Positions 9,410 through 27,982 of a DNA stretch of 64,000 nt are shown here, piece after piece (position 1 is the stretch's first letter; each line of letters begins with the position of its first letter). Origin of the DNA: Spartobacteria bacterium (GTDB lineage Bacteria; Verrucomicrobiota; Verrucomicrobiia; Chthoniobacterales; UBA6821); NCBI GenBank assembly GCA_947471565.1, contig CANIVT010000001.1:132612-196611 (forward strand), written 5' to 3'. A program made the translations under genes and the position numbers. The notes under the pieces are model-generated. The model saw only the letters and a program-made list of their open reading frames with translations, was not told where the DNA came from and did no database searches.

Positions 9410-10764
9410 TGTTCCCACGACCTTTCATCCCTATCCTCTGGAGCGCACTGATCCCCCTTCTTCTCTCGGGGTGCGCGATCCATCCACTCGGTCCCCTTGA
9501 CAAGGCACCTGAGCACCAGGTTAAGAAACTGACGGGTTACCGAGGATTTGCGTGGGGAATCTCCACGAGCAGCCTTCAATACGAGGACAAGGGAGTTGCT
9601 CCGGGAAACAAGGAATACTTCGTCCGCGACTGGGACCTGCTGGTGAAGGACGGGAAGGCGCCGGTCGTCGGCAATGCTCTCTACACTTGGATTGACTTCG
9701 ACAAGGATCTCTCGGCGCTGAAGAAGATCGGTGTCACCCACTACCGCTTCAGCATCGAATGGGCACGCGTTGAGCCGCAACCCGGACATTACAACGAAAA
9801 GGCCGTTCAGGGGTACGTCCGCATGTGCCGCAAGCTCCGTGAGGCTGGCATCGAGCCCGTCGTGACCCTGTGGCATTTCACCTTTCCGGCATGGCTGACG
9901 GATAAGAAGGATTCCTCCAAGACCAACTGGCTGCACCCTCTGGCGCGTGAACGGTGGAATCTCTACGTGAAGAAGATGGTGAAGGCCACTTCCCCGTACG
10001 TGAACTACTACGCCCCCGAGAACGAGCCCAACGGTCAGGTGCTCACAGCCTACATCATCGGCCTGTGGCCTCCCTGCCACACGTTCGACTTCAAGGGCTA
10101 CAAGGCCGCCACGATCGCCAGTGCCGATATGTTCCGTGATGCGGCAGGCATCATCAAAGGTGAGAAACCCTCCGCCAAGGTGTTGAGCGTGGAGGCTCTG
10201 CCGTGGTGGAAGCATGGTCCGCTTGATCCGGGTGGACTGCTTTACAACACCGTGATGCACTCGAATTTCGACCATCTCGACCGTGTCTGGGATGTCTGTG
10301 ACATCATCGGATTCAACTATTACTACAGCCAGCAGGCCGGCCCCGTGAGTTTTCTGTCCGAGGGAATGAGGCATGGTCCCAACTTCACGATGATGGGGTG
10401 GTGCATCGACCCGAAGGCGCTGGGCAAGCAGATCCGCTATGTCGCCAAGCGTTACGACAAGCCGATGATGATCACCGAGAACGGAGTCGCCACCAAGAAT
10501 GAGGAAAAGCGTCACCGATACCTTAGTGAACACATTGCCCAGATCCGGAAGGCGATGGATGAGGGCTACGATGTCAGGGGGTATTTCGTCTGGTCGCTCG
10601 CCGATAATTACGAGTGGCACTACGGCTATGTCCCCAAGTTCGGGCTCTGCACCATGGATCCGGTGACCAAGGTCCGTGTGCTCAAGCCGTCGGCAAACTA
10701 TTACCGCGATGTGATCCGCGCCTCCCAGGCCGCGGGGCATGTCGTGCCGGAACCTTCCAAGTAA
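9406..10764 (+). CDS. GH1-family glycosidase lipoprotein, paralog of 7134..8462
   Basis: MMFPRPFIPILWSALIPLLLSGC lipoprotein signal. GH1 motifs YAPENEPNG and MMITENGVA are present. It aligns along its whole length with the divergent upstream GH1. Confidence 0.75.
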   Translation: MMFPRPFIPILWSALIPLLLSGCAIHPLGPLDKAPEHQVKKLTGYRGFAWGISTSSLQYEDKGVAPGNKEYFVRDWDLLVKDGKAPVVGNALYTWIDFDKDLSALKKIGVTHYRFSIEWARVEPQPGHYNEKAVQGYVRMCRKLREAGIEPVVTLWHFTFPAWLTDKKDSSKTNWLHPLARERWNLYVKKMVKATSPYVNYYAPENEPNGQVLTAYIIGLWPPCHTFDFKGYKAATIASADMFRDAAGIIKGEKPSAKVLSVEALPWWKHGPLDPGGLLYNTVMHSNFDHLDRVWDVCDIIGFNYYYSQQAGPVSFLSEGMRHGPNFTMMGWCIDPKALGKQIRYVAKRYDKPMMITENGVATKNEEKRHRYLSEHIAQIRKAMDEGYDVRGYFVWSLADNYEWHYGYVPKFGLCTMDPVTKVRVLKPSANYYRDVIRASQAAGHVVPEPSK

Positions 10765-10821
10765 GGGTTTTCCCGCACCGGGAAGCTGGAAGGAGTGCCC
10801 GATTCTGTCCATGATCGGGTA

Positions 10822-11826
10822 ATGAAAGTCGCGGTCTTCAACACCAAGCGTTTCGAGAAACCCTTTCTCGAGGCTGCCGCGCGTGATGCCGGGATTACCC
10901 TGACGTATCTCGAGCCGCGTCTCGATGCCACCACCGCTCCCTTGGCAGCTGGGCATGATGCCGTCCTGATTTTCGTCAATGACGTGGCCGACCGGGCCTC
11001 GCTGGAAAAACTCTCCGCCGGGGGCGTGCGTCTTTTGGCCACACGCAGCGCCGGGTTTAACCAGATCGACTTCTCCGCCGCCCGAGAACTCGGCATTAGC
11101 CTTGCCTATGTCCCCGAGTATTCCCCCAACGCGGTGGCGGAGTTCACGATCGGTCTGATCCTGACTCTGGGGCGTCATATCCACGAGGGGCACAACCGCG
11201 TGCGCCGCGCTGATTTCAGCCTTGAGGGACTTTGCGGATTCGAACTCAGGGACAAGACCGTCGGTGTCTGCGGCACCGGGCGCATCGGCACGGAAGTGGT
11301 GAAGCTCCTCTCGGGATTCGGATGCCGCATCCTCGCCTACGACGACGCCCCCAGCGAGGAGGTGACCCTCCTCGCCTCCTGCGTCGATTCCAAGGAGGAG
11401 CTCTTCCGCTATTCCGACATCCTGACCCTGCACGTTCCCCTGATGCCTTCGACGTATCACCTGATCGATGCGCCAGCGCTCTCGACCATGAAGGACGGGG
11501 TCTTCCTCATCAACACGAGCCGAGGCGGTCTCATCGACACGCGTGCGGCTGTCGAGGCTCTCAAAAATCGCAAGATCGGCTTTCTGGCAATCGACGTCTA
11601 CGAAGAAGAGGCCTCGCTCTTCTTCGAGAATCGCTCCTCGGACATCATCGCCGACGACACCTTCGCGCGACTCCTGACCTTCCCCAATGTGATCGTCACG
11701 GGTCATCAGGCCTTTCTGACGGATCACGCCCTGCGCAATATCGTGGAGACGACTTTTCAGAGCCTGAAGGAATTCGCCGAAGGAAAGCCTCTCACGCATG
11801 CCGTTCCGGCACCGCCCACGGAATGA
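10822..11826 (+). CDS. ldhA: D-lactate dehydrogenase / D-isomer-specific 2-hydroxyacid dehydrogenase
   Basis: MKVAVFNTKRFEKPFL..., RSAGFNQID, VPEYSPNAVAEF, FSLEGLCGF and GVCGTGRIG closely parallel E. coli LdhA. Confidence 0.75.
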   Translation: MKVAVFNTKRFEKPFLEAAARDAGITLTYLEPRLDATTAPLAAGHDAVLIFVNDVADRASLEKLSAGGVRLLATRSAGFNQIDFSAARELGISLAYVPEYSPNAVAEFTIGLILTLGRHIHEGHNRVRRADFSLEGLCGFELRDKTVGVCGTGRIGTEVVKLLSGFGCRILAYDDAPSEEVTLLASCVDSKEELFRYSDILTLHVPLMPSTYHLIDAPALSTMKDGVFLINTSRGGLIDTRAAVEALKNRKIGFLAIDVYEEEASLFFENRSSDIIADDTFARLLTFPNVIVTGHQAFLTDHALRNIVETTFQSLKEFAEGKPLTHAVPAPPTE

Positions 11827-13685: not shown

Positions 13686-14534
13686 ATGCTCCAAGCCTCG
13701 ATGAATCGACGTTTCGCTATCCAAGGCTGCACCGCGCTGGTGACCGGAGCCACCGCCGGACTCGGCGCCGAGTTTGCCCGCCAACTAGCCCCGAGAGCCC
13801 GCCATCTCATTCTCGTCGGTCGCCGCAAGGAACGGTTGGCCTCCCTGGCGGAATCGCTCCGAAAAGACTTCTCAGCCCTCTCCATCGAATCGATACCCGC
13901 AGATCTGGCCATGCCCGAGGAACGGGAGCGTCTCGCCTCACATATCATCCGCTCGGAGATCCCGCTCAACCTGCTCGTGAACAATGCCGGCCTGGGGGAT
14001 CTTGGCCCCTTTGACACGGCGGAATGGACGCGGCTGGAGCCGATGCTCTCGGTGAATGTCACAGCACTCACCCACCTGACTCATCTTCTGCTTCCGATGC
14101 TTCGGGCGCACCCTCCCTCGGCTGTCCTAAACGTCAGCTCCATCGCCGGCTTCTTTCCGCTGCCCGAGATGGCTGTGTATGCTGCGACGAAGGCCTATGT
14201 GACGAGCTTCAGCGAGGCGCTTCGCATGGAGTTGGAGCCCCACGGCGTGGTAGTGACGGCCCTTTGCCCGGGCCCGGTGCCGACGGAGTTTTTTGAGGTG
14301 GCAAGCCGCGAGGGCAAAACGATCCGTGCGATGGACCGCTCTCACCCCGCGTTTGCGTCGCCGCCGGAATTGGTGGTGCGTCAGGCTCTTGCCGGATTGG
14401 AGCGAAATCGACCCGGAGTCATCCCGAACTCCCTCCTGGCCGCCGTCGTGCGAACTGTCCGACTGCTTCCCTTCCCGTTAATTCGTGAGGCGATCCGCCT
14501 AGGAGCTGGTCCCAAGAAGCCTGTCGAAGAATAA
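13686..14534 (+). CDS. SDR-family NAD(P)-dependent oxidoreductase
   Basis: Cofactor motif TGATAGLG, NNAG, and catalytic YAATKAY (YxxxK). Confidence 0.75.
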   Translation: MLQASMNRRFAIQGCTALVTGATAGLGAEFARQLAPRARHLILVGRRKERLASLAESLRKDFSALSIESIPADLAMPEERERLASHIIRSEIPLNLLVNNAGLGDLGPFDTAEWTRLEPMLSVNVTALTHLTHLLLPMLRAHPPSAVLNVSSIAGFFPLPEMAVYAATKAYVTSFSEALRMELEPHGVVVTALCPGPVPTEFFEVASREGKTIRAMDRSHPAFASPPELVVRQALAGLERNRPGVIPNSLLAAVVRTVRLLPFPLIREAIRLGAGPKKPVEE

Positions 14535-14803
14535 GGATTTTTACAGGGATGAGGGGGATGGATTTGTTTTAAACCACGAAAGGCACGAACGGACACGAAA
14601 GTTGTATCTGCACGGAGATTGGGATCTCCCTCGGACTGCGGTTCGAACAGTCTCACAGCCTACAGTCTAAAAAGCTTCCCCAGGAACAACTCCTGTCGTG
14701 GTGATCTGATAGTCTCCGGTGGATTCGAACCATGAATTCGAATCCATTCCCTCCTCGCCACCTTCCTCTCTGACCGTTATCTGTCAGACACCGTTTTCCA
14801 CCC

Positions 14804-16408
14804 ATGGCCCGTCCCAAGAAATCTTCCTCTTCCTCTTCCAAGGACTCCTCGGCCAATCTCGGCTTTGAGGCGAAGCTCTGGCTCGCCGCTGACAAGCTCC
14901 GGAACAACATGGATGCGGGCGAGTACAAGCACGTCGTCCTTGGCCTCATCTTCCTGAAGTACATCTCCGACAGCTTCGAGGAGCATCATGCCAAGCTCAT
15001 TGAGGGAGAGGGTGAGTACGCCGGGGCCAATCCCGAGGACAAGGACGAGTACCTCGCTGCCAACGTCTTCTGGGTTCCGAAGGAGGCCCGCTGGTCCTTC
15101 CTCCAGGGGAGTGCCAAGCTCCCGTCGATCGGCAAGCTCGTCGACGACGCCATGGTCGCCCTCGAACGGGACAACCCCCGACTCAAGGGCTCCCTGAACA
15201 AGAACTACGGACGCGCCGACCTCGATAAGAACCGCCTCGGCGAGCTCATCGACCTCATCGGCTCCATCCAGCTCGTAGATGCCGCCAGCCGGTCCAAGGA
15301 CCTCCTTGGGCGTGTCTTTGAGTACTTCCTTACTCAGTTCGCCAGTGCCGAGGGTAAGAACGGCGGCCAATTCTACACACCCTCCTGCGTCGTCCGCCTC
15401 CTTGTCGAGATGGTCGCCCCGTACAAGGGACGCATCTACGACCCGGCCTGCGGCTCGGGCGGCATGTTCGTCCAGAGTGAGAAATTCGTGGAATCCCACG
15501 GCGGCAAGCTGGGCGACATCAGCGTCTACGGCCAGGAGAGCAACCCCACCACCCGCCGCCTCGCCATCATGAACCTCGCCCTCCGGGGCATCGAGGCAGA
15601 CTTTGGACCCGAGAATGCAGACACGTTCCGCCGACCACTCCACCCCGACCTCCGGGCTGACTTCGTCCTGGCCAATCCTCCCTTCAACGACTCCGACTGG
15701 TACCGCAAAGACGATGACGTCCGCTGGCAGTATGGCGTCCCGCCTAAGGGGAATGCGAACTTCGCCTGGGTTCAGCACTTCATTCACCACCTTGCCCCAA
15801 AGGGAATGGCCGGCTTCGTTCTCGCGAATGGCTCAATGTCCTCAAACCAATCCGGAGAGGGGGAAATCAGGAAGGCCCTGATTGAGGCAGACCTCGTCGA
15901 CTGCATGGTCGCACTCCCTGGACAGCTCTTCTACTCCACCCAGATCCCCGTCTGCCTCTGGTTCCTCACGAGGAGCAAGAACGATGGAAAGCGCCGTGAC
16001 CGCCGCAAGGAAACCCTCTTCATCGATGCCCGGAGGATGGGCACCCTCATCGACCGTGTCCACCGCGAGCTTACGGAGGCCGACCTCGTGAAGATCGTCT
16101 CCACTTACCACGCATGGAGAGGGGATGAGATTCCTCAGGTTTCAGGTCTCAAGTCTCAGGTTTCCTCGTCGGCCTACGCCGACATCCCCGGCTTCTGCAA
16201 ATCTGCCACCACCGCCGAGATCGCCGCCCATGGTCATGTCCTCACACCTGGCCGCTACGTCGGAGCCGAGGAGATCGAGGATGATGGAGAGCCCTTCGAG
16301 GAGAAAATGCCCCGACTTGTTGCCGAGCTGAATATCCAGTTCGCCGAGTCTGCGAAACTCGAGCTGGCCATCAAGGCCAACCTGAAAGGACTTGGGTATG
16401 AAATCTGA
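14804..16408 (+). CDS. hsdM: type I restriction-modification system, DNA methyltransferase subunit M
   Basis: HsdM N-terminal domain ([32 protein letters not shown]). AdoMet motif [10 protein letters not shown]. Catalytic LANPPFN. Confidence 0.9.
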
Positions 16409-16480
16409 GGGTTCTCTTGCAAAAACTGGCTTGCCAATTCTTGACAATTTATTGGTTCCGCAGGATGGTAAAGCCAGTAA

Positions 16481-16532
16481 ACCCGCCGGGCCTCTGTCGA
16501 AAGATACGCTATCTCACGGCGGGTCTTTTTTT
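16481..16532 (+). terminator. terminator-like hairpin plus T7 run between hsdM and the Abi gene
   Basis: acccgccg (16481-16488) pairs with cggcgggt (16517-16524) and is followed by c+ttttttt. The loop is long (28 nt), so function is uncertain. Confidence 0.35.
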
Positions 16533-16550
16533 GCCCAGGGGAAGTGAACG

Positions 16551-17474
16551 ATGAAAAACGAGAAGCGTCATCACACCATCCAAGAACAGGTTCAGCTACT
16601 TCTGGCACGAGGGCTTGAAGGAGATCCTGACCTCATGGCATCTCGTTTGGCCGTGGTGAACTACTACCGACTGAGCGGCTACTGGTTTCCAATGCAAATG
16701 GGGGCTAGTTACCCCGAAATCATCGGCGCTACTCCAGAAACATTCCGGCCCGGATCAACTTTTGAAAACGTCTGGAGGAGATATACCTTTGATCGGGAGT
16801 TGCGACTTCTTGTTCTGGATGCAATTGAGCGATTCGAAGTTGCAGTCAGAACTCAGCTTGCCTACCACCACGCTTTCATCCACGGCCCTTTTGGCTATGC
16901 GAATGACCCAAAATCTAGGCCGAAATTGAAGCGAGAGGATTTTGCCAAATTTTACGCCGGATTACTGGAAGAGTTGGGAAGGAGTAAGGAACAATGCATA
17001 AAACATTATTTTAAGAAATATGGTGATGAACATGATGTTCCGCCCATCTGGCAGGCTGTGGAAGTCATGAGCTTTGGGAACATCGTCACCCTCTATCGGC
17101 ACACAACCAGTAAAGTGAAACAGGGGGTAGCCAGCACCTTTGGTATTCCTGATACCGTGATGGAGTCCTGGTTGCTTTCTCTCAACACCATTCGCAACAT
17201 TTGCGCTCATCACTCCCGGCTTTGGAATCGAGAATTGGGCAATAGGCCGATGATCCCTCGCTTGGAGGAATTTCCCGACTGGCATCTCCCGGTTCAGATC
17301 CGTAATGAGAAATTGTTCGGGATTCTAACCATCCTGAAATACTCCATGAATAGAATTGCCCCTCAGAGCCAGTGGGCACTTCGCTTCCATCAATTTCTCG
17401 CCGACTATCCCGACATCCCCATTGCCGATATGGGGTTCCCTGAGAATTGGGATCAAAACCCGATCTGGAAATGA
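16551..17474 (+). CDS. Abi_2-family (AbiD/AbiF-like) abortive-infection protein
   Basis: HTIQEQVQLLLARGL..., VNYYRLSGYWFP and YTFDRELRLLVLDAIERFEVAVRTQLAY follow the Abi_2 family pattern. The gene is embedded between hsdM and hsdS. Confidence 0.7.
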   Translation: MKNEKRHHTIQEQVQLLLARGLEGDPDLMASRLAVVNYYRLSGYWFPMQMGASYPEIIGATPETFRPGSTFENVWRRYTFDRELRLLVLDAIERFEVAVRTQLAYHHAFIHGPFGYANDPKSRPKLKREDFAKFYAGLLEELGRSKEQCIKHYFKKYGDEHDVPPIWQAVEVMSFGNIVTLYRHTTSKVKQGVASTFGIPDTVMESWLLSLNTIRNICAHHSRLWNRELGNRPMIPRLEEFPDWHLPVQIRNEKLFGILTILKYSMNRIAPQSQWALRFHQFLADYPDIPIADMGFPENWDQNPIWK

Positions 17475-17504
17475 GCCACACCTTGAACATAGGAGGACTG
17501 GGGT

Positions 17505-18815
17505 ATGGTGACTGAGTTTCAACAGCACGAAGTCGCAAAACTCATCAGCGACGGAACGCTGATGATCAACGACGGCTATCGCGCCAAAAACAGCGAACTG
17601 TCACATGCTGGCATTCCTTTTGCCCGAGCGGGAAACATTGATGGGGGCTTTCATTTTGAGGACTCCGATCGGGTTCCTGCTGAGACTCTTGCAAAAGTGG
17701 GTCAAAAAAAGAGCCAGGCTGGAGATGTAGTTTTTACATCAAAGGGAACAGTAGGACGGTTTGCTTTTGTTCGAGAGCACACCCCAGAGTTTGTCTATTC
17801 GCCTCAACTCTGTTTCTGGCGCTCCTTAGATGCCTCCCTCATCGACCCTAGATGGCTCTTCTACTGGATGAATGGTCGGGAGTTCTATCTTCAGTTCAAA
17901 GGCGTATCAGGACAGACCGACATGGCAGAGTATGTCAGTCTTCGTGACCAGCGGGCCATGAAGATGACCCTCCCACCCCTCTCCGAGCAGAAGCGAATTG
18001 CGGAAGTGTTGGGAGCTCTGGATGACAAGATCGAACTGAACCTGAGGATGAATGCCACGCTTGAGGCCACCGCCCGAGCCCTCTTCCAGAGCTGGTTCAT
18101 CGACTTCGATCCCGTCCGCGCCAAGCTCGACGGCCGAAAGCCCTCCGGCATCGATCCAGCCACCGCAACCCTCTTCCCCGACTCCTTCGAAGAATCCCCC
18201 CTCGGCCACATCCCCAAAGGGTGGGAAGTCCGACCACTAGCCAGTTTAACAACATATCTTAGCCGTGGTATCGGCCCCTCATACCTTGAACAGGGAGGGG
18301 TGTGCGTTCTGAATCAGAAATGCGTTCGTGACCATCGAGTAGATTTTACCAAATCCCGAAGACACGATTCCGTAAAAAAGCCCATCAATAAGCGCGGTTT
18401 GCAGCTTCACGATGTCTTGGTGAACTCTACTGGAATGGGAACGCTTGGACGAGTAGCTCAACTCTTTTATTTGCCTGAAGCGACAATTGTAGACTCGCAC
18501 GTCACCATCGTGCGTGCGGCCTCAAATACTGATCCATTCTTTCTAGGCATTAACCTGACTGGACGTGAAACTGAGATCGAGGAGTTAGGGGAAGGTTCTA
18601 CCGGTCAAACTGAACTTAGCCGCATAAGGCTAGGAGGACTTAAACTCATTACTCCTTCGTTTGACCTTCAAAAGGCGTTTGGATCAGCAGTTGCTCCACT
18701 CCTGATGAGTATGTCTGAAAACGAAAAGCAATCCCGCACCCTATCCACCCTCCGCGACACCCTCCTCCCAAAACTCCTGAGCGGGGAGTTGAGCGCAAAA
18801 GCACTTCAGATATAA
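17505..18815 (+). CDS. hsdS: type I restriction-modification system, specificity subunit S
   Basis: Two target-recognition domains are separated by conserved helices (LPPLSEQKRIAEVLGALDDKIELN... and ...LSTLRDTLLPKLLSGEL). AGGAGG lies 9 nt upstream of the ATG. Confidence 0.85.
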   Translation: MVTEFQQHEVAKLISDGTLMINDGYRAKNSELSHAGIPFARAGNIDGGFHFEDSDRVPAETLAKVGQKKSQAGDVVFTSKGTVGRFAFVREHTPEFVYSPQLCFWRSLDASLIDPRWLFYWMNGREFYLQFKGVSGQTDMAEYVSLRDQRAMKMTLPPLSEQKRIAEVLGALDDKIELNLRMNATLEATARALFQSWFIDFDPVRAKLDGRKPSGIDPATATLFPDSFEESPLGHIPKGWEVRPLASLTTYLSRGIGPSYLEQGGVCVLNQKCVRDHRVDFTKSRRHDSVKKPINKRGLQLHDVLVNSTGMGTLGRVAQLFYLPEATIVDSHVTIVRAASNTDPFFLGINLTGRETEIEELGEGSTGQTELSRIRLGGLKLITPSFDLQKAFGSAVAPLLMSMSENEKQSRTLSTLRDTLLPKLLSGELSAKALQI

Positions 18816-18824
18816 AGGACTCTA

Positions 18825-19580
18825 GTGATTTCTTCCGTAACGATTGTTGAAGTGCTGGAAAGAGCCCAACAGGGAATCACCAAGCCGTTTCTTTGCCGAG
18901 GTGATGATGACAGGCTTTACTACGTTAAAGGGAGGGCAGCCGGTTGTCGTTCTCTCTGTTGTGAGTGGATTGCAGGGAATCTTGCTAGAGACGTAGGCTT
19001 ACCAATACCCGAGTTTTTGATTGCGGAAGTGCCAGAGACTTTGGTGAGGGATAGCTCCCATTCCGAAATCAATGATCTCGGTTCTGGCTTTGTATTTGCA
19101 TCTTTACGAGTTGAGGGAGCACAGGAAATAACATGGCCAGAAGCCCAGGGATGTAAGATAGATGAAAAGGCATTGGTTCTTATCTTCGATTGGTGGGTGC
19201 AAAACGAGGATCGCTCTCTTTCAGTACATGGAGGAAACCCTAACCTCCTCACAACACCTTATAAAAATAAGGATATTAAATTATGGGTTTTCGACTTTAA
19301 TCTGGCTTTTGATCTCAATTTCTCAGAGGAGAAATTCAGATCAAATCATCTATTTTATGACCTTCTGTCTGAATGGCCATTGGGTTTTCGCCAGAACGTG
19401 ACTGGAAAGATGAAGGTTGCTGTTGAGCGTCTTGATGAGCTGTTTGCAGCCCTTCCTGAGGAGTGGCTCTATTTTCAGGGGGATAAAAATCTTGCGGTGC
19501 ATTTGGATAAAAATCTGGTATCAGTTATTCTCTCCATACCGTTCACCGAACCCGACCGTTTTTGGAAAAGCCTGCTATGA
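18825..19580 (+). CDS. short HipA-like (PI3/4-kinase-fold) kinase, kinase core only
   Basis: 251 aa from a GTG 9 nt after hsdS. Motifs: RLYYVKG (Lys), FDWWVQNEDRSLSVHGGNPNLL (DRH-x-x-N-like catalytic loop) and LWVFDFNLAF (DFG-like). It lacks the HipA N-terminal domains. Confidence 0.6.
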   Translation: MISSVTIVEVLERAQQGITKPFLCRGDDDRLYYVKGRAAGCRSLCCEWIAGNLARDVGLPIPEFLIAEVPETLVRDSSHSEINDLGSGFVFASLRVEGAQEITWPEAQGCKIDEKALVLIFDWWVQNEDRSLSVHGGNPNLLTTPYKNKDIKLWVFDFNLAFDLNFSEEKFRSNHLFYDLLSEWPLGFRQNVTGKMKVAVERLDELFAALPEEWLYFQGDKNLAVHLDKNLVSVILSIPFTEPDRFWKSLL

Positions 19581-20410
19581 ACCGCCCTGTCAAATATGCC
19601 TGCAATTATGCGGTGCTTCGATTCCGTCCCTACCCGGAAACGGCAGAGTTCGTGAATCTGGGGGTTGTGATGCACTGCCCAATGCTGGGTTTTTTCGATA
19701 CTCAGATTGAAACCCATAAAGTCGCAAGGGTCACAAATTTCTTTCCAGAGTTAGATCGTAAGACCTTTGCGGCGGCACGGAGGACAATTTTGGAAGAGGT
19801 GGATCGGATTAAAACAATGATTGCTCATCAAAAAGATGTTGAGGCTGGGCGCATCTTATTTGGTGAGTTGGTTCGTCCGCGTGAAGCGGTATTCCGCTTT
19901 GGAGAAATTCGCACGATTCTAACGGATGATCCAACTACTCTGGCTGGACACCTTTTTGCACAATATGTGCTTCGTCATTTTGCACAGGTCAAAGAGTATC
20001 AAGAAAACGTGATGGCTGATCGCTTCTTTAAGGCATTAAAGGAGTTTCGCCCGAACCAAACTTTTCATCGCAATAAAGCCGTAGGGACAGAAGAGTATCG
20101 AATTCGGATTCCAATATGTTCTGATTGGCGGAATCCAGAAGGTGTTCCCATGCGAGCCGTCAAGCCGTTGGATCTACAGAAGAAAGAGACTACTGATATC
20201 ATTGAGCATGGCGATTTGTGGGCTCAGCGACTTCGTAGGTTACGAATGGTAGAAAGACTTCCAGAAAGATTAATTTTTGCCGTAAGGCATCCAAAAGATA
20301 TTGCCGGTAAAAAAGCGGCTGGAGATGTGTTGGCGTCATTAAAAGACGCAGGGGGAATTTTGGTGGACGCTGCAGATACAGAAAGAATTCTCGAATTAGC
20401 AGCAGACTAA
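19577..20410 (+). CDS. DUF3037-like protein, function unknown
   Basis: The ATG at 19577 overlaps the kinase stop (ATGA). The N-terminus VKYACNYAVLRFRPYPETAEFVNLGVVM fits the pattern Y.YAV.R..P....EF.N.GV that I associate with DUF3037. 277 aa. Confidence 0.6.
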   Translation: MNRPVKYACNYAVLRFRPYPETAEFVNLGVVMHCPMLGFFDTQIETHKVARVTNFFPELDRKTFAAARRTILEEVDRIKTMIAHQKDVEAGRILFGELVRPREAVFRFGEIRTILTDDPTTLAGHLFAQYVLRHFAQVKEYQENVMADRFFKALKEFRPNQTFHRNKAVGTEEYRIRIPICSDWRNPEGVPMRAVKPLDLQKKETTDIIEHGDLWAQRLRRLRMVERLPERLIFAVRHPKDIAGKKAAGDVLASLKDAGGILVDAADTERILELAAD

Positions 20411-20421
20411 ATTGACTGCTG

Positions 20422-20541
20422 ATGAGCGGTCTGAACGAATCCCATCTCGAGGAGGCCGCGCTGGAGTGGCTGGCTGAGCTGGGCTATGCCCTCGGCCACG
20501 GGCCCGACATGGCACTGGGGAAATTCCTGATTCCTGACTGA
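20422..20541 (+). pseudogene. hsdR 5' stub (39 codons), duplicate of the start of the intact hsdR
   Basis: [33 protein letters not shown]... compared with Hsd[33 protein letters not shown].... Nt 20431-20514 align with 23712-23795 at 78/84 identity, and all 6 differences are synonymous. The stub then diverges and stops. Confidence 0.85.
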
Positions 20542-20557
20542 TTAATAGGAGAATCCC

Positions 20558-21868
20558 ATGAGCGACGAGACCCCTCAGAAAGAACTCACCCGCGAGGAAC
20601 TCTACGAGAAGGTCTGGTCGACTCCAGGGACGAAACTAGCAGAGGAACTGGGGATCTCGGATGTGGCGATCACGAAGCGCTGCAAGAAGCTGAATGTCCC
20701 CCGTCCCTCCCGCGGCTACTGGGCAAAGCTGGCGGCAGGGAGGAAATCCCCGAAGCTCCCGCTCCCTCCCACACCTGATGAGGTCTTTCTCAAGTCGGCG
20801 GAGCAATCTGTCGGCAATGAGCTTTCCCTGCCTGAATCCATGGAATCCCTTCATGAGCTTGCCGCCGCGCTGATCGCTAAGATCAAGAAGGCACATGTCG
20901 ATTCTGACAAGCGAGCCAGCTTTTACGGTGATCGCACGCTACCGGAGGTCAAGGTGACGAAGGCTCAGGCGGAGCGAGCGGCACAGGCATTCCATGTGAT
21001 TCTTCAGAAGGTGGAGCCGCTGGGGATTACGTTCCGGAAGGCCCAGAGTTCCTATGGCCCCGCCTATTTCCAGAAAAGCCATGACCGGCTGTATCTCAAG
21101 ATCGAGGAGGAGATGATCGAGAAGACACCTACAGCGAGGCGGAGTCGGTATTCCGGATATGGCTATGGACTGAGGGAGGAGAAGGTTCCCTCGGGGCGGC
21201 TGATCTTTTCCCTCAAGACGGATCGCTACGGCTCGAGTGATGAGAAGGAGTTCACCGAGAGCGAGAGGCTGCCTCTCGATAAGGTGCTCGCCCGCGTGGT
21301 CAACGAGATCCGCAGTCACTATGTGGCCGCGCAGAAGCGGCGGAAGGCCGAGGCCATCCAGCGGGAGAAGGATCGGATCGAATCGGAAATTCGCCATAAG
21401 AAATATCTCGAGGAGAGGGCCATCAAGGAAGCAGAGGAGGCGAAGAAGAATCATGCCAAGGCGCTGAAGAAAACTGCCAAGAAGCGGCAGGATGATTTCC
21501 TGAAGGCCTCCGAGTGGTGGAGGATGTTCGAGTCGGCAAATGCATTCATCGTGGCGTGTGAGCACCGATGGAAGGAGAGCCAGAGTGGGGAGCTAACCTC
21601 CGAGCAGGTGGAGTGGATCACATGGGCGCGTAACATCTCAAATGACCTATCCCCGTTTGCCTTGGGGTACCCTGAGCCATCCAAGGATGGAGCCTTCAAC
21701 CCAGAAGAGGTGCCTTTCGGAGGCCCCTATCCTGAGATACGTGACTTTCCCCGGCCCCCGACGATGCCGAAGATCCCGCCTCCTGTCGTCGAGCAGAGAG
21801 GCTATGGCTACTCCTCAACCCCAGCGCCAACCCGCTACCCCTTCTGGCTCAGGCATCAGGGCCGATGA
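20558..21868 (+). CDS. hypothetical protein: N-terminal HTH-like motif, K/E-rich coiled-coil, Pro-rich tail
   Basis: 436-aa ORF with AGGAGA upstream. The N-terminus is ELYEKVWSTPGTKLAEELGISDVAITKRCKKLNVPRPSRGYWAK. The central part is KRRKAEAIQREKDRIESEIRHKKYLEERAIKEAEEAKK. No enzymatic motif recognised. Confidence 0.55.
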   Translation: MSDETPQKELTREELYEKVWSTPGTKLAEELGISDVAITKRCKKLNVPRPSRGYWAKLAAGRKSPKLPLPPTPDEVFLKSAEQSVGNELSLPESMESLHELAAALIAKIKKAHVDSDKRASFYGDRTLPEVKVTKAQAERAAQAFHVILQKVEPLGITFRKAQSSYGPAYFQKSHDRLYLKIEEEMIEKTPTARRSRYSGYGYGLREEKVPSGRLIFSLKTDRYGSSDEKEFTESERLPLDKVLARVVNEIRSHYVAAQKRRKAEAIQREKDRIESEIRHKKYLEERAIKEAEEAKKNHAKALKKTAKKRQDDFLKASEWWRMFESANAFIVACEHRWKESQSGELTSEQVEWITWARNISNDLSPFALGYPEPSKDGAFNPEEVPFGGPYPEIRDFPRPPTMPKIPPPVVEQRGYGYSSTPAPTRYPFWLRHQGR

Positions 21869-21973
21869 GGGTCATTATCACAAATCCCTGATGGAGAGAT
21901 TCATGAGACGAAACTACTAATTATAAACGTTTTAGTAGTTGGCTAGTAGTTACAGGACTATACGGAATATATA

Positions 21974-22019
21974 TCGCCATAACTGGCGAAATATCTTGAT
22001 TAAAGCGATCAATTCGCCA
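21974..22019. promoter_or_regulatory. putative HipB operator half-sites (TCGCCA) upstream of hipB
   Basis: TCGCCA-taac-TGGCGA is an inverted repeat at 21974-21989. A third TTCGCCA lies at 22013-22019, 14 nt before the hipB ATG, in an AT-rich stretch. Confidence 0.3.
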
Positions 22020-22032
22020 TATTTGACGCATT

Positions 22033-22398
22033 ATGAAGATCTCTCTGGAGATGAATGATGGTACGATCCTCCGGGAGCTCGGGGAGAGGCTTGCCCATGC
22101 CCGCTTGGAGAGGAATCTGACGCAGGCGGCGCTGGCCGAGCAGGCCGGAGTCGCCAAGAGGACACTCGAGCGACTGGAGTCGGGTGAGGTGGCGGCTCAG
22201 CTCTCCGCGTTTCTCCGTGTCTGCCGGGTGCTTGGTCTGCTCGATCGCCTCGACGCCCTAATCCCGGAAGCCAAGCCCGGCCCGATGGAGTTGCTGAGGC
22301 TTCAGGGTAGGAAGAGGCAACGTGCCTCCAAGGCCTCTGTCCAGAAATCTGCCAGGGTCAAGGAGGGCTCCCGCTGGAGCTGGGGGGATCCGTCATGA
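22033..22398 (+). CDS. hipB: XRE-family HTH antitoxin (HipB-like)
   Basis: LRELGERLAHARLERNLTQAALAEQAGVAKRTLERLESG is a classic XRE HTH. The stop overlaps the hipA start (ATGA, 22395-22398). Confidence 0.75.
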   Translation: MKISLEMNDGTILRELGERLAHARLERNLTQAALAEQAGVAKRTLERLESGEVAAQLSAFLRVCRVLGLLDRLDALIPEAKPGPMELLRLQGRKRQRASKASVQKSARVKEGSRWSWGDPS

Positions 22399-23699
22399 TC
22401 GCGGAGGTCCGGCTCTGGGGCAGGCGGATCGGTGCTCTCTCTATGGATGAAGGGCGGGAGGTTGCGGCTTTCCAGTATGATCCGGAGTTCGCTGGGAGCG
22501 GGATTGAGATCGCTCCGCTGATGATGCCGCTGGGCGAGCGGGTGCATGAGTTCCCCGCGTTGTCCCGGGAGTCGTTTCACGGTTTGCCCGGAATGCTCGC
22601 GGATTCCCTGCCGGATAAGTTCGGCAATGCGCTGATCAATGCGTGGCTGGCAACGCAAGGGCGGACGCCGGGGAGCTTCGGTGCGCTGGAGCGTCTCTGC
22701 TACACGGGTTCCCGCGGGATGGGTGCGCTGGAGTATCTTCCCGCGCTCGGGCCGAGGCCGCGTCGTGCGGTGAAGGTGCGCATCGATGCCCTGGTCGATC
22801 TGGCCTCGGAGGTGCTCTCCCATCGGGGGGATCTGCAGGGGCATTTTCATGACGAGGGTAAGGCGAAGGCGCTGGCCGATATCCTGCGCGTGGGGACGTC
22901 GGCGGGCGGGGCCCGGGCGAAGGCTGTTATCGCTTGGAATGAGGAGACTCACGAGGTGCGCTCCGGACAGATCGAGGCCGGGGATGGCTTTGGCTACTGG
23001 CTGCTGAAGTTTGACGGGGTCTCGGGCAACCGTGACAAGGAGAATGAGGATCCCCGGGGATACGGGGTGACCGAGTATGCCTATCACCTTATGGCATGCG
23101 CGGCGGGGATCGCGATGAGCGAGTGTCGTCTGATGGAAGAGGGAGAGCGGAGGCATTTCATGACGCGGCGGTTCGACAGGCTGCCGGGTGGGGAGAAGCT
23201 GCACATGCAGTCGCTGGCGGCGCTGGCACATCTCGATTTCAACCGTGCCGGGGCTCATTCATATGAGCAGGCCTTTCTGGTGATCCAGCAACTCGGTCTG
23301 CCGATGGCCTCGGTGGAGGAGCAGTTCCGCCGGATGGCCTTCAACATCGTTGCCCGCAATCAGGACGACCATGTGAAGAATATCGCCTTCCTGATGGATC
23401 AGGATGGGGGGTGGTCGCTTTCGCCTGGCTTCGACCTGACCTACAGCTTCAATCCCGGAGGTGCCTGGACGGCCTCGCACCAGATGACGATGAACGGAAA
23501 GAGGGAGGGGTTCACGAGGGGGGATTTCGACGCCTGTGCCAAGGCGGCTGGAATGAAACGTGGGCGTGCAGGCACAATCCTCGACGAGGTGATCGCCGCC
23601 GTGAAAGACTGGCCACGCTTCGCCATACAGGCGAAGCTCTCGGAGTCGACGATGAGCAAGATCCAGAAGGTCCACCTACTCGATTTTCCGAAACAGTAA
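22395..23699 (+). CDS. hipA: type II toxin-antitoxin system HipA-family serine/threonine kinase toxin
   Basis: 434 aa. N-terminal coupling domain (VRLWGRRIGALSMDEG...FQYDPEF). GLPGMLADSLPDKFGN. Kinase core with ARNQDDHVKNIAF and LSPGFDLTYS. Confidence 0.85.
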   Translation: MIAEVRLWGRRIGALSMDEGREVAAFQYDPEFAGSGIEIAPLMMPLGERVHEFPALSRESFHGLPGMLADSLPDKFGNALINAWLATQGRTPGSFGALERLCYTGSRGMGALEYLPALGPRPRRAVKVRIDALVDLASEVLSHRGDLQGHFHDEGKAKALADILRVGTSAGGARAKAVIAWNEETHEVRSGQIEAGDGFGYWLLKFDGVSGNRDKENEDPRGYGVTEYAYHLMACAAGIAMSECRLMEEGERRHFMTRRFDRLPGGEKLHMQSLAALAHLDFNRAGAHSYEQAFLVIQQLGLPMASVEEQFRRMAFNIVARNQDDHVKNIAFLMDQDGGWSLSPGFDLTYSFNPGGAWTASHQMTMNGKREGFTRGDFDACAKAAGMKRGRAGTILDEVIAAVKDWPRFAIQAKLSESTMSKIQKVHLLDFPKQ

Positions 23700-23705
23700 C
23701 CGCCC

Positions 23706-26700
23706 ATGTCCCTGAACGAATCCCATCTCGAGGAAGCCGCGCTGGAGTGGCTGGCCGAGCTCGGCTATGCCCTCGGCCATGGACCCGACATGGCTCCGGG
23801 AGAGGTTGCTGCCGAGCGGGAGACCTTCTCCGAGGTGGTACTGAAGGGGCGTCTACGTGAGGCGATCCATCGACTCAATCCCGCGATCCCTGCCGAGGCA
23901 CGCGAGGAGGCTCTCAGGAAGGTCCTGCGCCACGAGACGACCTCCCTAATCGGGAATAACCGGGCCTTCCACCATCATCTGCGCGACGGGGTGCCGGTGG
24001 AGTATCGCCGGGCTGATGGATCTATCGCTGGGGATCGGGTACGGCTGGTGGACTTCGCTGATCCTGCCGCCAATGACTGGCTGGCGGTGAATCAGTTCAC
24101 CGTGATCGAGGGCCAGCATAACCGCCGTCCCGATGTGATCCTCTACCTGAACGGTCTGCCTCTCGCCGCGATCGAGCTCAAGAATGCTGCCGATGAGGAG
24201 GCGACGATCTGGAGCGCCTTCTCCCAGCTCCAGACCTACAAGGCGGAGATTCCCTCCCTGATGAACTACAACGAGATCCTCGTGGTCTCCGATGGTCTGC
24301 AGGCCCGGATCGGATCGCTGACGGCGAATCAGGAATGGTTCAAGGTCTGGCGCACGATCGATGGTGACGGGGATGCTCCCAAGAGCGCCCTGGAGCTGGA
24401 GGTGCTGATCCGGGGAGTCTTTGACCGGAAGCGCTTCCTCGGGCTGCTGGAGCATTTCGTGACCTACGAGGAGGACCCTGACAACGGGTCGGTCCATAAG
24501 ATCATTGCTGGGTATCATCAGTTCCACGCGGTGAATGCCGCCGTCGAGGAGACGATCCGTGCAAGCGGGATGGGCGACGAGAACCGAGCCAAGGAAGGAG
24601 ATGGGGCCTACTGGTCGGGTCGCATGGAGGAGGGAGCGCCGGGTGACCGTCGCGCCGGGGTGGTCTGGCACACGCAGGGAAGCGGCAAGAGTTTCTCGAT
24701 GCTTTTTTATGCCGGACGGATGGCCCGTCACCCTGCGATGCAGAATCCGACCCTCATTGTGCTGACCGACCGGAATGATCTCGACGATCAGCTCTTCGGC
24801 CAGTTTCAGCGCTGCCATGAGACGCTGGGTCAGATGCCCATTCAGGCAGAGAGCAGGGAGCATCTCCGAGAACTCCTCAATCGTGCCAGCGGCGGAGTCA
24901 TTTTCACAACGATTCACAAATTCGCCGCTGAGAAAGACTCGGCAAAGAAAGCCCTCTCCGAGCGCCGCAATATCGTCGTCATCGCCGACGAGGCCCATCG
25001 TTCCCAATACGACCTGATAGATGGATTCGCCCGCGACATGAGGGATGCCGTGCCCCATGCCTCGTTCATCGGATTCACCGGGACGCCGATCGAGAAGGCG
25101 GATGCCAATACGCGGGCGATCTTCGGCAACTACATCTCCGTCTATGACATCCAGCGGGCCGTGGCTGATAAAGCAACAGTCCCAATCTACTATGAGAGCC
25201 GGATTGCCAAGCTGGGGCTCAATGCCTCGGAGCTGCCGAAGCTCGACGCGGAGTTCGAGGAGATCACCGAGGGCGAGGAGGAGGGGAGTCGGGAAAAGCT
25301 CAAGACGAAGTGGGCCGCGCTGGAGGCTCTGGTCGGAGATCCGAAGAGGATCGCCCTGATCGCCAAGGATCTCGTGGAGCACTTCGAAAAGCGTCTCGAG
25401 GCGATGGATGGCAAGGCGATGGTCGTCTGCATGAGCCGCCGCATCTGCGTCGATCTCCACGAGGCGATCCTGAAGCTTCGCCCCGAGTGGGCCAGTGCCA
25501 AGGATGACGATTCCGAAGGCGAGAAGGGGAAAGCGTGCGTGGTGAAGGTCGTCATGACCGGAAGTGCCAGCGATGGCCCCGAGTGGCAGCAGCACATCCG
25601 CAACAAGGAGAAGCGCCGAAAGCTCGCCAACCGCTTCAAGGACAGCAAGGACCCCTTCCGTATCGTGATTGTCCGAGACATGTGGCTGACGGGATTCGAC
25701 GCTCCGTGCCTTCACACCATGTATGCCGACAAGCCGATGCGCGGCCACGGGCTTATGCAGGCGATCGCTCGGGTGAACCGGGTCTTCCGCGACAAACCGG
25801 GTGGACTGATTGTCGATTACCTCGGGCTAGCCGATCAACTTAAGCAGGCGCTGGCCACCTACACGGAGAGCGGAGGCCAGGGTCATCCCACCTATGACGA
25901 GAAGCAGGCCATCGCGATCCTTCTGGAGAAGCACCAGATCGCCTCCGACATGCTCCATGGCTACGACTGGTCCAAGTGGGCGACGGGTTCCTCGGCAGAA
26001 AAAATCAAACTCATCCCCGGAGCGCAGGAGCATATTCTGGAACAGGAGGACGGGAAGAAACGCTTCGTCCAGGTCGTGACGGAACTCTCGCGGGCCTTTG
26101 CCCTTTCGGCGGCCAGCGATGAGGCCACGGCCATCCGGGATGACGTCGCCTTCTTCCAGGCCGTACAGGTGGCCCTCAACAAGCAGGAGAGTAAGAGCGG
26201 TAAGAATCCCGAGCAACTCGACGCGGCCGTTCGCCAGCTTGTCTCCAAGGCGATTACGACAGAGGGACAGGTGATCGATGTCTTTACGGCGGCGGGACTA
26301 CCCCGTCCTGACATAGGCATCCTCTCGGACAAGTTCCTCGCCGAGGTGAGGGGGTTGAAGCACAAGAACGTCGCCGCCGAACTGCTGGAGAAGCTCCTCA
26401 AAGATGAGCTCAAGGTCCGATCCAAGCGGAATTTCGTCCAGGCCAAGCAATTCAGCGATAAGCTGAAGCAGACCCTCAACGGCTACCATAACCGCGCCAT
26501 CTCCACGATGGAGGTGATCGAGGAGCTGATCAAGCTGGCCAAGGAACTCGACTCCGCCACCAAGCGGGGCGTCGATCTCGGGCTCACCGATGACGAGGTG
26601 GCTTTCTACGATGCACTCGCCGCCAATGAGTCAGCCGTCCGAGCGCTCGGCAATGAGCAACTCAAGGTGATCGCCAGCGAACTCATCACTCAGGTACGCA

Positions 26701-26864
26701 AGAGTGCCACGATCGACTGGACCCTCCGGGAAAGTGCCCGAGCCAAGATCCGCGTCATCGTGAAGCGCATCCTTAACAAATACGGCTACCCACCAGACCT
26801 CCAGGACCCAGCCGTCCAAACCGTCCTCCAACAGGCCGAACTCCTCTGTGCTGAGGTGGTGTAA
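23706..26864 (+). CDS. hsdR: type I restriction-modification system, endonuclease/helicase subunit R
   Basis: 1052 aa. N-terminal nuclease region ([19 protein letters not shown]). Walker A-like [12 protein letters not shown] box [10 protein letters not shown]. Motif VI-type QAIARVNR. Confidence 0.9.
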
Positions 26865-26947
26865 CGGTAACACATCACCTTTACTGAGTTTCAGATTCAA
26901 AATCCCCCTGCATTGACTGGGCACCTCTCTTCGCAGAGAATCGACCT

Positions 26948-27982
26948 GTGAAAAGCGTTTCCAGATGGTCCGCGCGTGAAATTGATCCCAGGGCAAACAC
27001 TGCCTTCCTTTCTGCCATCGAGCTGATCGGTCCCGAGCTCTACTCTGTCGAGGAGAGGATCCGTGAGCAGTCCAAGGCCGTGGATGCCGGCATCGAGCAC
27101 TATTTTGAGTATGCGATCGGAGGGAGTGGCAAGCGTCTGCGTCCCGCGCTGGCACTGCTGGCCGGGGGGGCCACCGGGCGCGTGGTCTCCGACCATGTCG
27201 ATCTGGCCGTCATTCTTGAACTCATCCACATCGCGAGCCTCGTCCATGACGACATCATGGATGGCGCCGACAAGAGGCGCGATCGCCCCACCCTCAACGC
27301 CAAATGGGGTAATTCCCTGACCGTGCTGGTCGGTGATGTCCTGTTCGCCCATGCGCTACGACTTTCCACCAAGTTTCCGAACGCCGTCTCGAGGCGTATC
27401 GCGGATGCGGCGGCTGATGTCTGCACGGGGGAGATCCTCCAGACGCAGAAGAGGTTCGATCTGAATCTGCCGCTCTCCGAGTATTACCGGATGGTCCAGA
27501 TGAAGACGGGTGCCCTCTTCTCAGCTGCCACAGAGCTCGGGGCCTACCTGAGCGGCTCCTCTCCCACGGTGATCGGGGCGCTCCGCACCTACGGTGATAA
27601 GGTCGGTATTGCCTATCAGGTGCTCGATGACTGCATCGATCTCGTCGGTGACGAGGAGATGATCGGCAAGACACTCGGAACGGACCTGTCCTGCGGCAAG
27701 TTCACCCTGCCGGTCCTCCTGTTGCTCCAGCGCTCCACCCCTGCACAGCGTGAGGAACTGAGTTCGATGCTTCTGGCCGACGGTGGAATGGATGCCACGG
27801 TTCTTCTGGAACTCGTCCGATCGCGCGGTGCCCTGACAGCTGCTGTCGCCGCTGGCACCTTGCTGGTCGATGAGGCGGAGGCCGCTCTGTCCGTGGTTCA
27901 GGAGAACCGCCATGCCGAGGCCTTGCGCTCCATGACGGAATATCTGCGGGGGGTCTTCGGTTCTTTGGATACGGCGGGCTGA
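26948..27982 (+). CDS. polyprenyl diphosphate synthase (long-chain, IspB-like)
   Basis: First Asp-rich motif LVHDDIMDG and second YQVLDDCID. GKRLRP. GTG start. Confidence 0.8.
   Translation: MKSVSRWSAREIDPRANTAFLSAIELIGPELYSVEERIREQSKAVDAGIEHYFEYAIGGSGKRLRPALALLAGGATGRVVSDHVDLAVILELIHIASLVHDDIMDGADKRRDRPTLNAKWGNSLTVLVGDVLFAHALRLSTKFPNAVSRRIADAAADVCTGEILQTQKRFDLNLPLSEYYRMVQMKTGALFSAATELGAYLSGSSPTVIGALRTYGDKVGIAYQVLDDCIDLVGDEEMIGKTLGTDLSCGKFTLPVLLLLQRSTPAQREELSSMLLADGGMDATVLLELVRSRGALTAAVAAGTLLVDEAEAALSVVQENRHAEALRSMTEYLRGVFGSLDTAG

Follow-up and report, generated by a model that had tools for sequence, protein, structure and literature searches.

How does a type I restriction-modification (R-M) locus come to hold several unrelated guest modules between its own genes and keep those genes whole? 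The question is posed by a stretch of 64,000 nt from a Spartobacteria bacterium (the window; GenBank assembly GCA_947471565.1, contig CANIVT010000001.1, positions 132,612 to 196,611), in which hsdM, hsdS and hsdR (M, S and R in the gene orders below) occupy positions 14804-26864 of the plus strand (12,061 bp, with nine open reading frames (ORFs) and one short stub). They are separated by guest genes for an AbiD-type protein (slot 1, between M and S), for a HipA_2 kinase with a DUF3037 protein (slot 2a, after S), for a 436-aa protein (orf436) and for the HipBA pair (slot 2b, abutting hsdR), as listed in Table 1. The locus is probably a rack for separately acquired defence and toxin-antitoxin (TA) modules that was built by accretion at the start of hsdR, and the feature on which this reading turns is a 5' stub of hsdR, which lies between slot 2a and orf436 and, by its sequence, is the scar of an earlier hsdR start.

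The sequence-only reading of the window had noted such a stub before hsdR, and the stub is real, since 89 nt of it (20431-20519) are 92% identical to hsdR 23712-23800; with the 5' end of hsdR in L083, a close relative, it shares 94.4% identity (comparison loci carry L numbers). For the wider comparison, a distant set was taken from an HsdR scan with one genome per species (80 loci, 71-80% aa identity, at least eight phyla), the gaps were counted in 62 loci with an upstream hsdS (S-R) and in 53 loci (M-S), and the N-termini of all HsdR proteins were searched against the upstream DNA of all loci. Besides the window, 21 hsdR 5' fragments were found in 15 loci, all co-oriented with hsdR and beginning at its codon 1, with ends between codons 24 and 81 and one at codon 177, each followed by cargo. 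Among the 62 loci that have hsdS upstream, 14 hold at least one stub, and up to three occur in one locus (L010, L045). The S-R gap has a median of 4.27 kb in loci with stubs versus 2.56 kb in those without (Mann-Whitney p = 6e-6, indicative only as the loci are not independent), and the number of stubs rises with gap size (rho = 0.57, with the same dependence among loci). The M-S slot was searched for 5' stubs of hsdS and 3' stubs of hsdM, and neither was found; the remnants of this kind are 3' tails of hsdS, confined to the S-R slot.

Pairs of loci that resemble the states before and after an insertion were observed three times. L056 has the order S-HipA_2-DUF3037-R with a 13-nt spacer before hsdR, versus the window, where the same pair is followed by an 11-nt spacer and then by the stub. 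L051 has a single gene for a 540-aa protein between S and R, versus L054, where the same gene (89% nt identity) is followed by a stub at the position of the hsdR start and then by RhuM and R. L036 and L050 have S, a DUF4365 pair and R, versus the three-stub locus L010, where the DUF4365 pair is followed by a stub, a helicase with a DprA-like gene, a stub, GmrSD, a stub, a glycosyltransferase and R. Several stubs are nearer to the hsdR of another locus than to their own (92 versus 78%, 92 versus 77% and 81 versus 55%), and therefore the stub differs in origin from the 5' end that hsdR has now. In L045, L048 and L081 the stub is fused straight to the last ~25 hsdS codons (...RLNPAIP/...LRDxLLPKLLSGEL, then stop), and hsdS-tail remnants are present in four further loci (L008, L025, L033, L068). 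RhuM cassettes begin with the same leader whether they follow hsdS or a stub, and their joints share a GCGG/G-type microhomology with the hsdS 3' end. Taken as sequence evidence, these fusions and the before/after pairs suggest that cassettes were added one after another at the start of hsdR, by joining at microhomologies and homologous recombination and without a recombinase.

The same fusions and remnants are also the residue expected from another history, in which two complete type I loci of the same family, set in tandem by an event such as co-integration, underwent a microhomology deletion from the 5' part of hsdR1 to the tail of hsdS2, leaving stub-cargo2-hsdR2 with R1, M2 and S2 lost, and microhomology is indeed present at the junctions. 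This history is unlikely, as a tandem intermediate (a second hsdM or a full hsdS between stub and hsdR) is seen in 0 of the 80 loci, the three-stub loci would demand three rounds of whole-locus duplication and deletion, and the window junction is without a recognisable hsdS tail.

Under serial accretion, the four co-oriented guest units of the window, namely the AbiD-type gene, the HipA_2+DUF3037 pair, orf436 and the hipBA pair, would have been acquired separately, and would be co-transcribed with hsd genes whose M2S complex would methylate the host and whose R2M2S complex would restrict unmethylated invaders. The earlier state would have been S-HipA_2-DUF3037-hsdR, and the donor would have been DNA of another locus of the family that spanned an hsdS tail, cargo and hsdR and was anchored by homology in hsdR. 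A segment with orf436, more cargo and a fresh hsdR 5' end would then have been joined illegitimately, on the basis of microhomology, within ~100 nt of the start of the resident hsdR, and a crossover deeper in hsdR would have restored the gene, with the old start codon and 33 codons remaining as the stub, a duplicated gene start. Such insertions would be tolerated because the incoming DNA restores hsdR and does not disturb hsdM, hsdS or resident cargo of an addictive kind. Later, recombination between conserved arms would have replaced the genes that adjoin hsdR, which in the relatives are Fic, DUF3800 or hipA; these arms would be the hsdS tail (67 nt, 90-97%), the stub (~90 nt, 88-94%), orf436 and the hsdR start, and a cassette bracketed by two hsdR starts could enter a naive hsdR by homologous recombination alone.

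It is tentatively proposed, with a little less than an even chance of being right, that in this widespread HsdR family the first ~60-200 nt of hsdR are an additive docking site that works without a recombinase, with the stub as a portable left homology arm. Pfam gave no integrase or transposase domain in the nine ORFs of the locus or its flanks, and for 132 cargo proteins, whose matches fall into 63 Pfam families, the 25 families listed include no recombinase. Growth at one docking point is known from integron arrays and from tandem islands at tRNA genes, the latter with partial tRNA 3' repeats between the islands. The window resembles them in its ordered array beside a conserved gene end and in its partial target duplicate, the hsdR 5' stub, but differs from them as no integrase, attI/attC or precise att core was found, its breakpoints are variable and its duplicate is a protein-coding 5' end. 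If additive docking is true, integron-like defence arrays could grow without an integrase, which would explain how embedded defence islands are assembled.

A site-specific recombinase acting in trans, with an att site in the first ~200 nt of hsdR and an element that brings a replacement hsdR 5' end, is the other mechanism to be weighed, and it would suit stubs that always run from codon 1 and whose ends cluster near codons ~29-33 and ~58-66, a left end of the RhuM cassette that is constant whichever hsdR codon is joined, and an hsdR 5' DNA that is unusually conserved and holds the palindrome GCCGAGCTCGGC at 23752-23763. It is nevertheless very unlikely, because the breakpoints vary (codons 24 to 81 plus 177), no integrase, transposase or attC-like repeat occurs in the window locus or among the top listed cargo families, and the constant RhuM left ends are explained by the 3' end of the donor hsdS. 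Several observations also count against accretion itself. The two breakpoint clusters make a preferred site possible, with few junctions read at the nucleotide level, and the end-states alone fit insertion and duplication-then-deletion alike. The comparison loci are metagenome assemblies or metagenome-assembled genomes with shared ancestry (the window, L083 and L090 represent one junction), and the p-values overstate their independence. A promoter and terminator scan of 14400-27200 gave 4 promoter-like signals versus 4.7 in shuffles and 9 terminator-like signals versus 11, none above chance.

The stubs themselves show decay, as some have lost their start codons, some have drifted non-synonymously and some have received GC-rich hairpin elements. 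These elements (e.g. GGAGCAATGTCGCGTTGCTCC, CCTTCTCCCAGCGGGAGAAGG) lie inside stubs just past codon 16 (L042 113-400; L045 4919-5210 and 6532-6825; L064 7401-7500; L071 5386-5500), have near-identical copies across genomes and, judged from their sequences, look like miniature repeat elements that colonise dead stubs. A stub-internal peptide (LLRSAPLNYGG...) was considered as an inverted hsdR segment and rejected, being an inserted GC-rich hairpin element.

Differential cargo was also observed among close relatives, which were found through a search with the 436-aa protein and compared by blastn. In L083, L090 and L093, hsdM shows 84-92% and hsdR 87-90% nt identity to the window, and the loci lie at different chromosomal sites. 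The window has the order M-Abi_2-S-(HipA_2+DUF3037)-stub-orf436-(hipBA)-R; L093 has M-Abi_2-S-orf436-(Fic)-R, without a stub; L083 has M-Abi_2-S-(DEAD helicase+DprA-like)-stub-orf436-(HTH+DUF3800)-R; and L090 has M-(Gp49+HTH)-S-(Mrr_cat nuclease)-stub-orf436-(DUF3800)-R. Homology to the window breaks recurrently at the end of the hsdS tail (18795), at the first stub codons (20429-20431), ~80 nt past orf436 (21941-21951; for L083 inside hipB at 22297) and at the hsdR start codon (23700-23706). The 67-nt hsdS tail shows 90-97% nt identity to L083, L090 and L093, and the DNA just downstream of it is unrelated; within hsdS, only the conserved core and the tail match the relatives, and the target recognition domains (TRDs) differ. 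The stub::orf436 junction GGGGAAATTCCTGATTCCTGACTGA is identical in the window, L083 and L090, and the cargo on both sides of it is unrelated; one shared junction with unrelated flanking cargo fits later exchange through short arms. The shared breaks therefore define at least four exchange units, so that the three guest cassettes of the sequence-only reading hold as guests and not as a count, and its proposal that the locus works as a landing pad is supported by four close relatives (hsdR 87-90% nt identity) with different cargo in each slot and no fixed gene order. The alignment with orthologous hsdMSR loci that it had suggested as a check did not return a conserved ancestral operon.

Exchange appears to extend into the antitoxin genes. 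The window HipB and an HTH protein of L083 (10484-10837) differ at two positions over the first ~85 residues and have different C-terminal tails, and the partner of the L083 protein is a DUF3800 protein, not HipA, which suggests, as far as two sequences go, that antitoxin tails are exchanged along with the partner gene. The counterpart of hipA in L083, L090 and L093 is DUF3800 or Fic.

The view that the order is an operon conserved from an ancestor or an artefact of assembly, without true turnover of cassettes, could draw on the window HsdR being encoded identically on nine independent metagenome contigs, two of which are displayed and share the arrangement, the other seven being collapsed as similar places. 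The nine contigs are one population, however; close relatives differ in the cargo of every slot and in chromosomal site, and syntenic genomes are without the block. The arrangement is not an assembly accident because nine independent contigs encode the identical HsdR and the two displayed have the same order, and the stub has diverged from hsdR (92%) and so is not an assembly repeat. A fixed order without turnover is accordingly so improbable that it can hardly be credited.

The empty chromosomal site was found in at least 20 syntenic relatives (78-93% identity; metagenome scan with the polyprenyl synthetase), in which the SDR gene adjoins the polyprenyl synthetase gene (IspB) and the block is absent; in L096 (4560-4690) the two are spaced by 52 bp, and in the alignment with this locus homology to the window is lost just past the SDR stop codon. 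As SDR and IspB are adjacent in these relatives, the 12.4 kb at 14535-26912 is, on this comparison, an insertion, and probably a horizontally acquired R-M locus of an HsdR family with the T1RH-like C-terminal domain. The flanking genes are housekeeping genes (solute-binding protein, SDR, polyprenyl synthetase, RadC, LpxA, RpsA), and no integrase, tRNA or clear target duplication was found at the block ends. The SDR/IspB site may itself be insertion-prone, because L120 (5378-10000) holds a different insert at this junction, with a PIN-domain protein, a P-type ATPase and PPK2.

In the distant set, the S-R gap is filled in 62 of 62 loci (961-9,381 bp, median 2.8 kb) and 10 of 53 loci have more than 400 bp between M and S; as the S-R slot is never empty in this HsdR family, nesting is the rule. 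The guest ORFs form more than 100 clusters of unrelated cargo, including RhuM, AAA_15/AAA_21/OLD-like ATPases, deaminase-HATPase_c_4 fusions, GmrSD, SIR2_2 and Fic, and further Macro, AbiEii, YhcG, DUF4365 and DUF3800, and 84% of the guest ORFs of at least 100 aa have the same orientation as the hsd genes. With 16 proteins, RhuM is the commonest S-R occupant; its stop codon and the start of hsdR often overlap. The cassettes of the window also occur alone, as with Abi_2 between M and S in L053 and hipBA upstream of hsdM in L025. The HipA_2+DUF3037 pair is directly 5' of hsdR in L056 and L074 as well, and in L024 a DUF3037 gene is directly 5' of hsdR on a contig of only 3.9 kb that shows no more. 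The guest DNA of the window measures 1,096 + 4,890 = 5,986 bp of the 12,061 bp, where ~5.8 kb had been estimated, and this load is in the top ~8%, with 4 of 53 loci having at least 5,986 bp of guest DNA. The window is thus a heavily loaded but ordinary example of a known arrangement.

Obligate S-R occupancy in this HsdR family bears on functional coupling between cargo and R-M, and the guests might be wired to the R-M enzyme as PrrC-like guards against phage anti-restriction, with their position set by selection for coupling. The never-empty slot in 62 loci, the prevailing co-orientation, the tight spacing (6 nt between hipA and hsdR, and the overlap of the RhuM stop with the hsdR start) and the precedents of PrrC and DarTG2 (PMC12707154, PMC12255303) speak for such wiring. 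The cargo is very heterogeneous, however (>100 families), and cassettes work or occur alone elsewhere, HipAD as a standalone system (PMC12548924) and orf436 and RhuM without R-M in L086, so that coupling as the cause of position is quite unlikely. Coupling of this kind complements the accretion mechanism and does not exclude it.

A conserved palindrome with covarying arms precedes the ribosome-binding site of rhuM in L047 (8425-8477), L071 (5541-5596), L069 (8950-9005), L031 (745-799) and L054 (2541-2591). The arms read AACTATTCGG...CCGAATAGTT, AACTATCCGG...CCGGATAGCT, AACTATTAAG...CTTAATAGTT and GTTGCA...TGCAAC, each followed by (A)GTTCAA, and the palindrome may act as an operator bound by a protein or as a hairpin in the RNA.

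The R-M locus that carries these guests is intact by motif and apparently functional. Gene identities were taken from Pfam, PADLOC and NCBIfam profile matches and motifs were read in the printed translations; the profile matches bear out the genes named earlier, at the same positions and all on the plus strand, and hsdM, hsdS and hsdR, which had been called intact, are full length with catalytic motifs. HsdM has the AdoMet-binding motif DPACGSG at 213 and the catalytic motif NPPF at 291. HsdS has two TRDs, judged from its near full-length PADLOC match and from the alignment of core and tail with relatives, of which Pfam detects the first only. HsdR has five Pfam domains over residues 3-1049 (HSDR_N, SWI2_SNF2/ResIII, T1R_D3 and T1RH-like_C), a PD-(D/E)xK nuclease motif (D143...E157-x-K159) and the translocase motifs GSGKS at 325 and DEAH at 428, and EcoR124I HsdR is a distant match to it (7e-31). 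The positions of all features are collected in Table 1.

Table 1. Positions of the R-M genes, guest genes, stub and junctions in the window.
Feature	Coordinates	Strand	Description
Left junction	14535-14803		non-coding, from SDR stop codon to hsdM start
hsdM	14804-16408	+	N6-adenine methyltransferase subunit; Pfam N6_Mtase 1.4e-103 and HsdM_N; PADLOC MTase_I 1.9e-217
Abi_2/AbiD-type abortive-infection gene	16551-17474	+	slot 1, between hsdM and hsdS; PADLOC AbiD 8.6e-66
hsdS	17505-18815	+	specificity subunit; Pfam Methylase_S; PADLOC Specificity_I 2.4e-113, residues 14-430 of 436
hsdS 3' tail	18729-18795	+	LRDTLLPKLLSGEL; 67 nt; left homology arm of slot 2a (candidate)
HipA_2-family Ser/Thr kinase	18825-19580	+	slot 2a, predicted toxin of the pair; Pfam HipA_2 4.8e-71; PADLOC PDC-M66A 7.4e-15
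DUF3037 protein	19577-20410 (longest ORF from 19562)	+	presumed antitoxin; Pfam 4.4e-23; PADLOC PDC-M66B 5.1e-20
hsdR 5' stub	20422-20541	+	39 codons; codons 3-33 match HsdR, then a 6-codon foreign tail and stop
orf436	20558-21868	+	436 aa; no Pfam family; >280 homologues
Intergenic region with palindromes	21869-22032		164 nt upstream of hipB; read directly
hipB	22033-22398	+	HTH antitoxin/repressor; Pfam HTH_31 and HTH_3
hipA	22395-23699	+	canonical HipA kinase, predicted toxin, slot 2b; HipA_C 1.8e-49, Couple_hipA 4.5e-19
hsdR	23706-26864	+	full-length restriction/translocase subunit; PADLOC REase_I E=0
Right junction	26865-26912		empty-site homology starts again at ATTGACTGGGCA, 5' of the polyprenyl synthetase gene

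The Abi_2-type gene that had been placed between M and S is there, and Abi_2 spans most of its protein (Pfam residues 33-226, 1.2e-54; PADLOC AbiD residues 2-302). In other loci slot 1 is occupied by Abi_2 (L053, L083, L093), by Gp49 with HTH (L090) or by other genes (9 more loci). By eye only, a hairpin is seen at 16482-16532, 74 nt past the hsdM stop, with arms CCCGCCG...CGGCGGG, a loop of 28 nt and TCTTTTTTT after it; its long loop kept it unscored in the terminator scan, and as a candidate it might part hsdM from the Abi_2 gene transcriptionally.

The kinase and DUF3037 pair reported after S was likewise recovered by the Pfam matches in Table 1. The DUF3037 start at 19577, taken from the gene call in L001, overlaps the kinase stop by 4 nt, and with a HipA_2 kinase adjoining a DUF3037 protein the pair corresponds in its domains to the validated HipAD/DS-6/PDC-M66 type. 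DUF1829, which is part of DS-6B, was not found in the window DUF3037 protein (Pfam at E <= 0.01); a Retron-Sda1-associated pair has been described with DUF3037 only, so that DUF1829 is not required for PDC-M66. For DS-6/HipAD and the Retron-Sda1-associated pair, defence needs the kinase, and toxicity follows when the DUF3037 gene is lost (PMC12548924, PMC13092281).

The 436-aa protein had been called an orphan and belongs instead to a conserved family, of which L083, L090 and L093 also carry members in their type I loci. Its AlphaFold2 model (pLDDT 79.8) exhibits a three-helix HTH at the N-terminus, a domain of alpha/beta type and a helix of ~100 residues; the model gave no structural match in PDB, and the protein gave no family match in Pfam or NCBIfam. 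The family recurs in neighbourhoods of defence type, inside R-M loci and elsewhere, and its role may be regulation or, as a new kind of protein, defence. Outside R-M, homologues with ~55% identity lie immediately 5' of a RhuM gene in L086 (9001-11259) and, in L088 (4498-11281), between a 1,453-aa DUF4011/AAA_11/AAA_12 helicase and a NucS-like protein.

Downstream of orf436, a palindrome ACTACTAA-N11-TTAGTAGT lies at 21913-21939 with a third half-site within 21913-21951, and TCGCCA-TAAC-TGGCGA lies at 21974-21989 with an extra TCGCCA at 22014-22019, just upstream of hipB. The left boundary of slot 2b is near 21951, as homology to L090 and L093 stops at 21941-21951. The palindromes of 21869-22032 are candidate operators for orf436, HipB or both, and the region is probably a promoter/operator for hipBA; if the palindromes are HipB operators, hsdR, which starts 6 nt past hipA, may be read from an autoregulated TA promoter. 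The ACTACTAA-N11-TTAGTAGT motif also precedes a Fic gene in L064 (7575-7700). The hipB and hipA genes overlap by 4 nt (22395-22398) and have the gene order and domains of HipBA; the NCBIfam couple_hipB match of hipB (3.7e-12) is below the cut-off of that model, and the HipA translation contains the P-loop-like SAGGARAK, DDHVKN and FDLT.

The landing-pad idea is right but already published (Payne et al. 2024, bioRxiv 10.1101/2024.01.29.577857; PMC12255303). In the preprint, guest genes are described as embedded in type I R-M, BREX and DISARM loci with 96.7% co-orientation, and pseudogene-containing systems were filtered out. Co-oriented guests between hsd genes, mostly defence or unknown, are common to that survey and the window, whose kinase pair matches PDC-M66A/B; the survey differs in that it appears to describe neither hsdR stubs nor an assembly mechanism, and a term search of it gave no mention of truncated genes, hsdR or recombination, whereas the window stacks four units in two slots. 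In the RRDM island of enteropathogenic Escherichia coli, DarTG2 lies between hsdS and hsdR, is regulated by RptR, and its site was called a potential recombination hotspot (PMC12255303). This island shares with the window a TA defence module in the hsdS-hsdR gap and differs in its single cassette, its other TA family and its dedicated upstream repressor, with no stub reported. EcoprrI, a type IC locus, has the anticodon nuclease gene prrC between hsdS and hsdR (PMC12707154), and is similar in holding an abortive-infection effector in the S-R slot and in the distant relationship of the window HsdR to the type IC EcoR124I HsdR; the coupling of PrrC to its R-M enzyme is both physical and functional, whereas any such coupling in the window would be hypothetical, and the window locus holds no homologue of PrrC or RloC. 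With HipAD/DS-6 and HipBA the window shares domain pairs and gene order; in those systems the kinase is the toxin, which the partner neutralises (PMC12548924, PMC13092281). The window differs from DS-6B, which has DUF3037 plus DUF1829, in having DUF3037 only.

The hsdR stubs as boundary markers of stacked cassettes seem new, with no earlier report found; in the literature searched for hsdR truncations, partial copies or remnants, the only cases were unrelated ones from staphylococci. Genes nested in R-M loci already serve for 'guilt-by-embedding' discovery of defence systems, to which the stubs add a readable record of insertion order and a concrete hypothesis for how nests form and how stubs are re-used as homology arms, and orf436 and many unannotated slot occupants are flagged as defence candidates.

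Two minor observations concern the window and its relatives. Two 818-aa minus-strand ORFs (937-3393 and 9343-11799) were considered as a duplication and rejected, their sequences being unrelated. In L084 and L085 (882-2909), the HsdM of a close relative is 675 aa long and has DUF559 (a Vsr-like endonuclease) between HsdM_N and N6_Mtase, and this insertion is at the equivalent of window 15270-15305.

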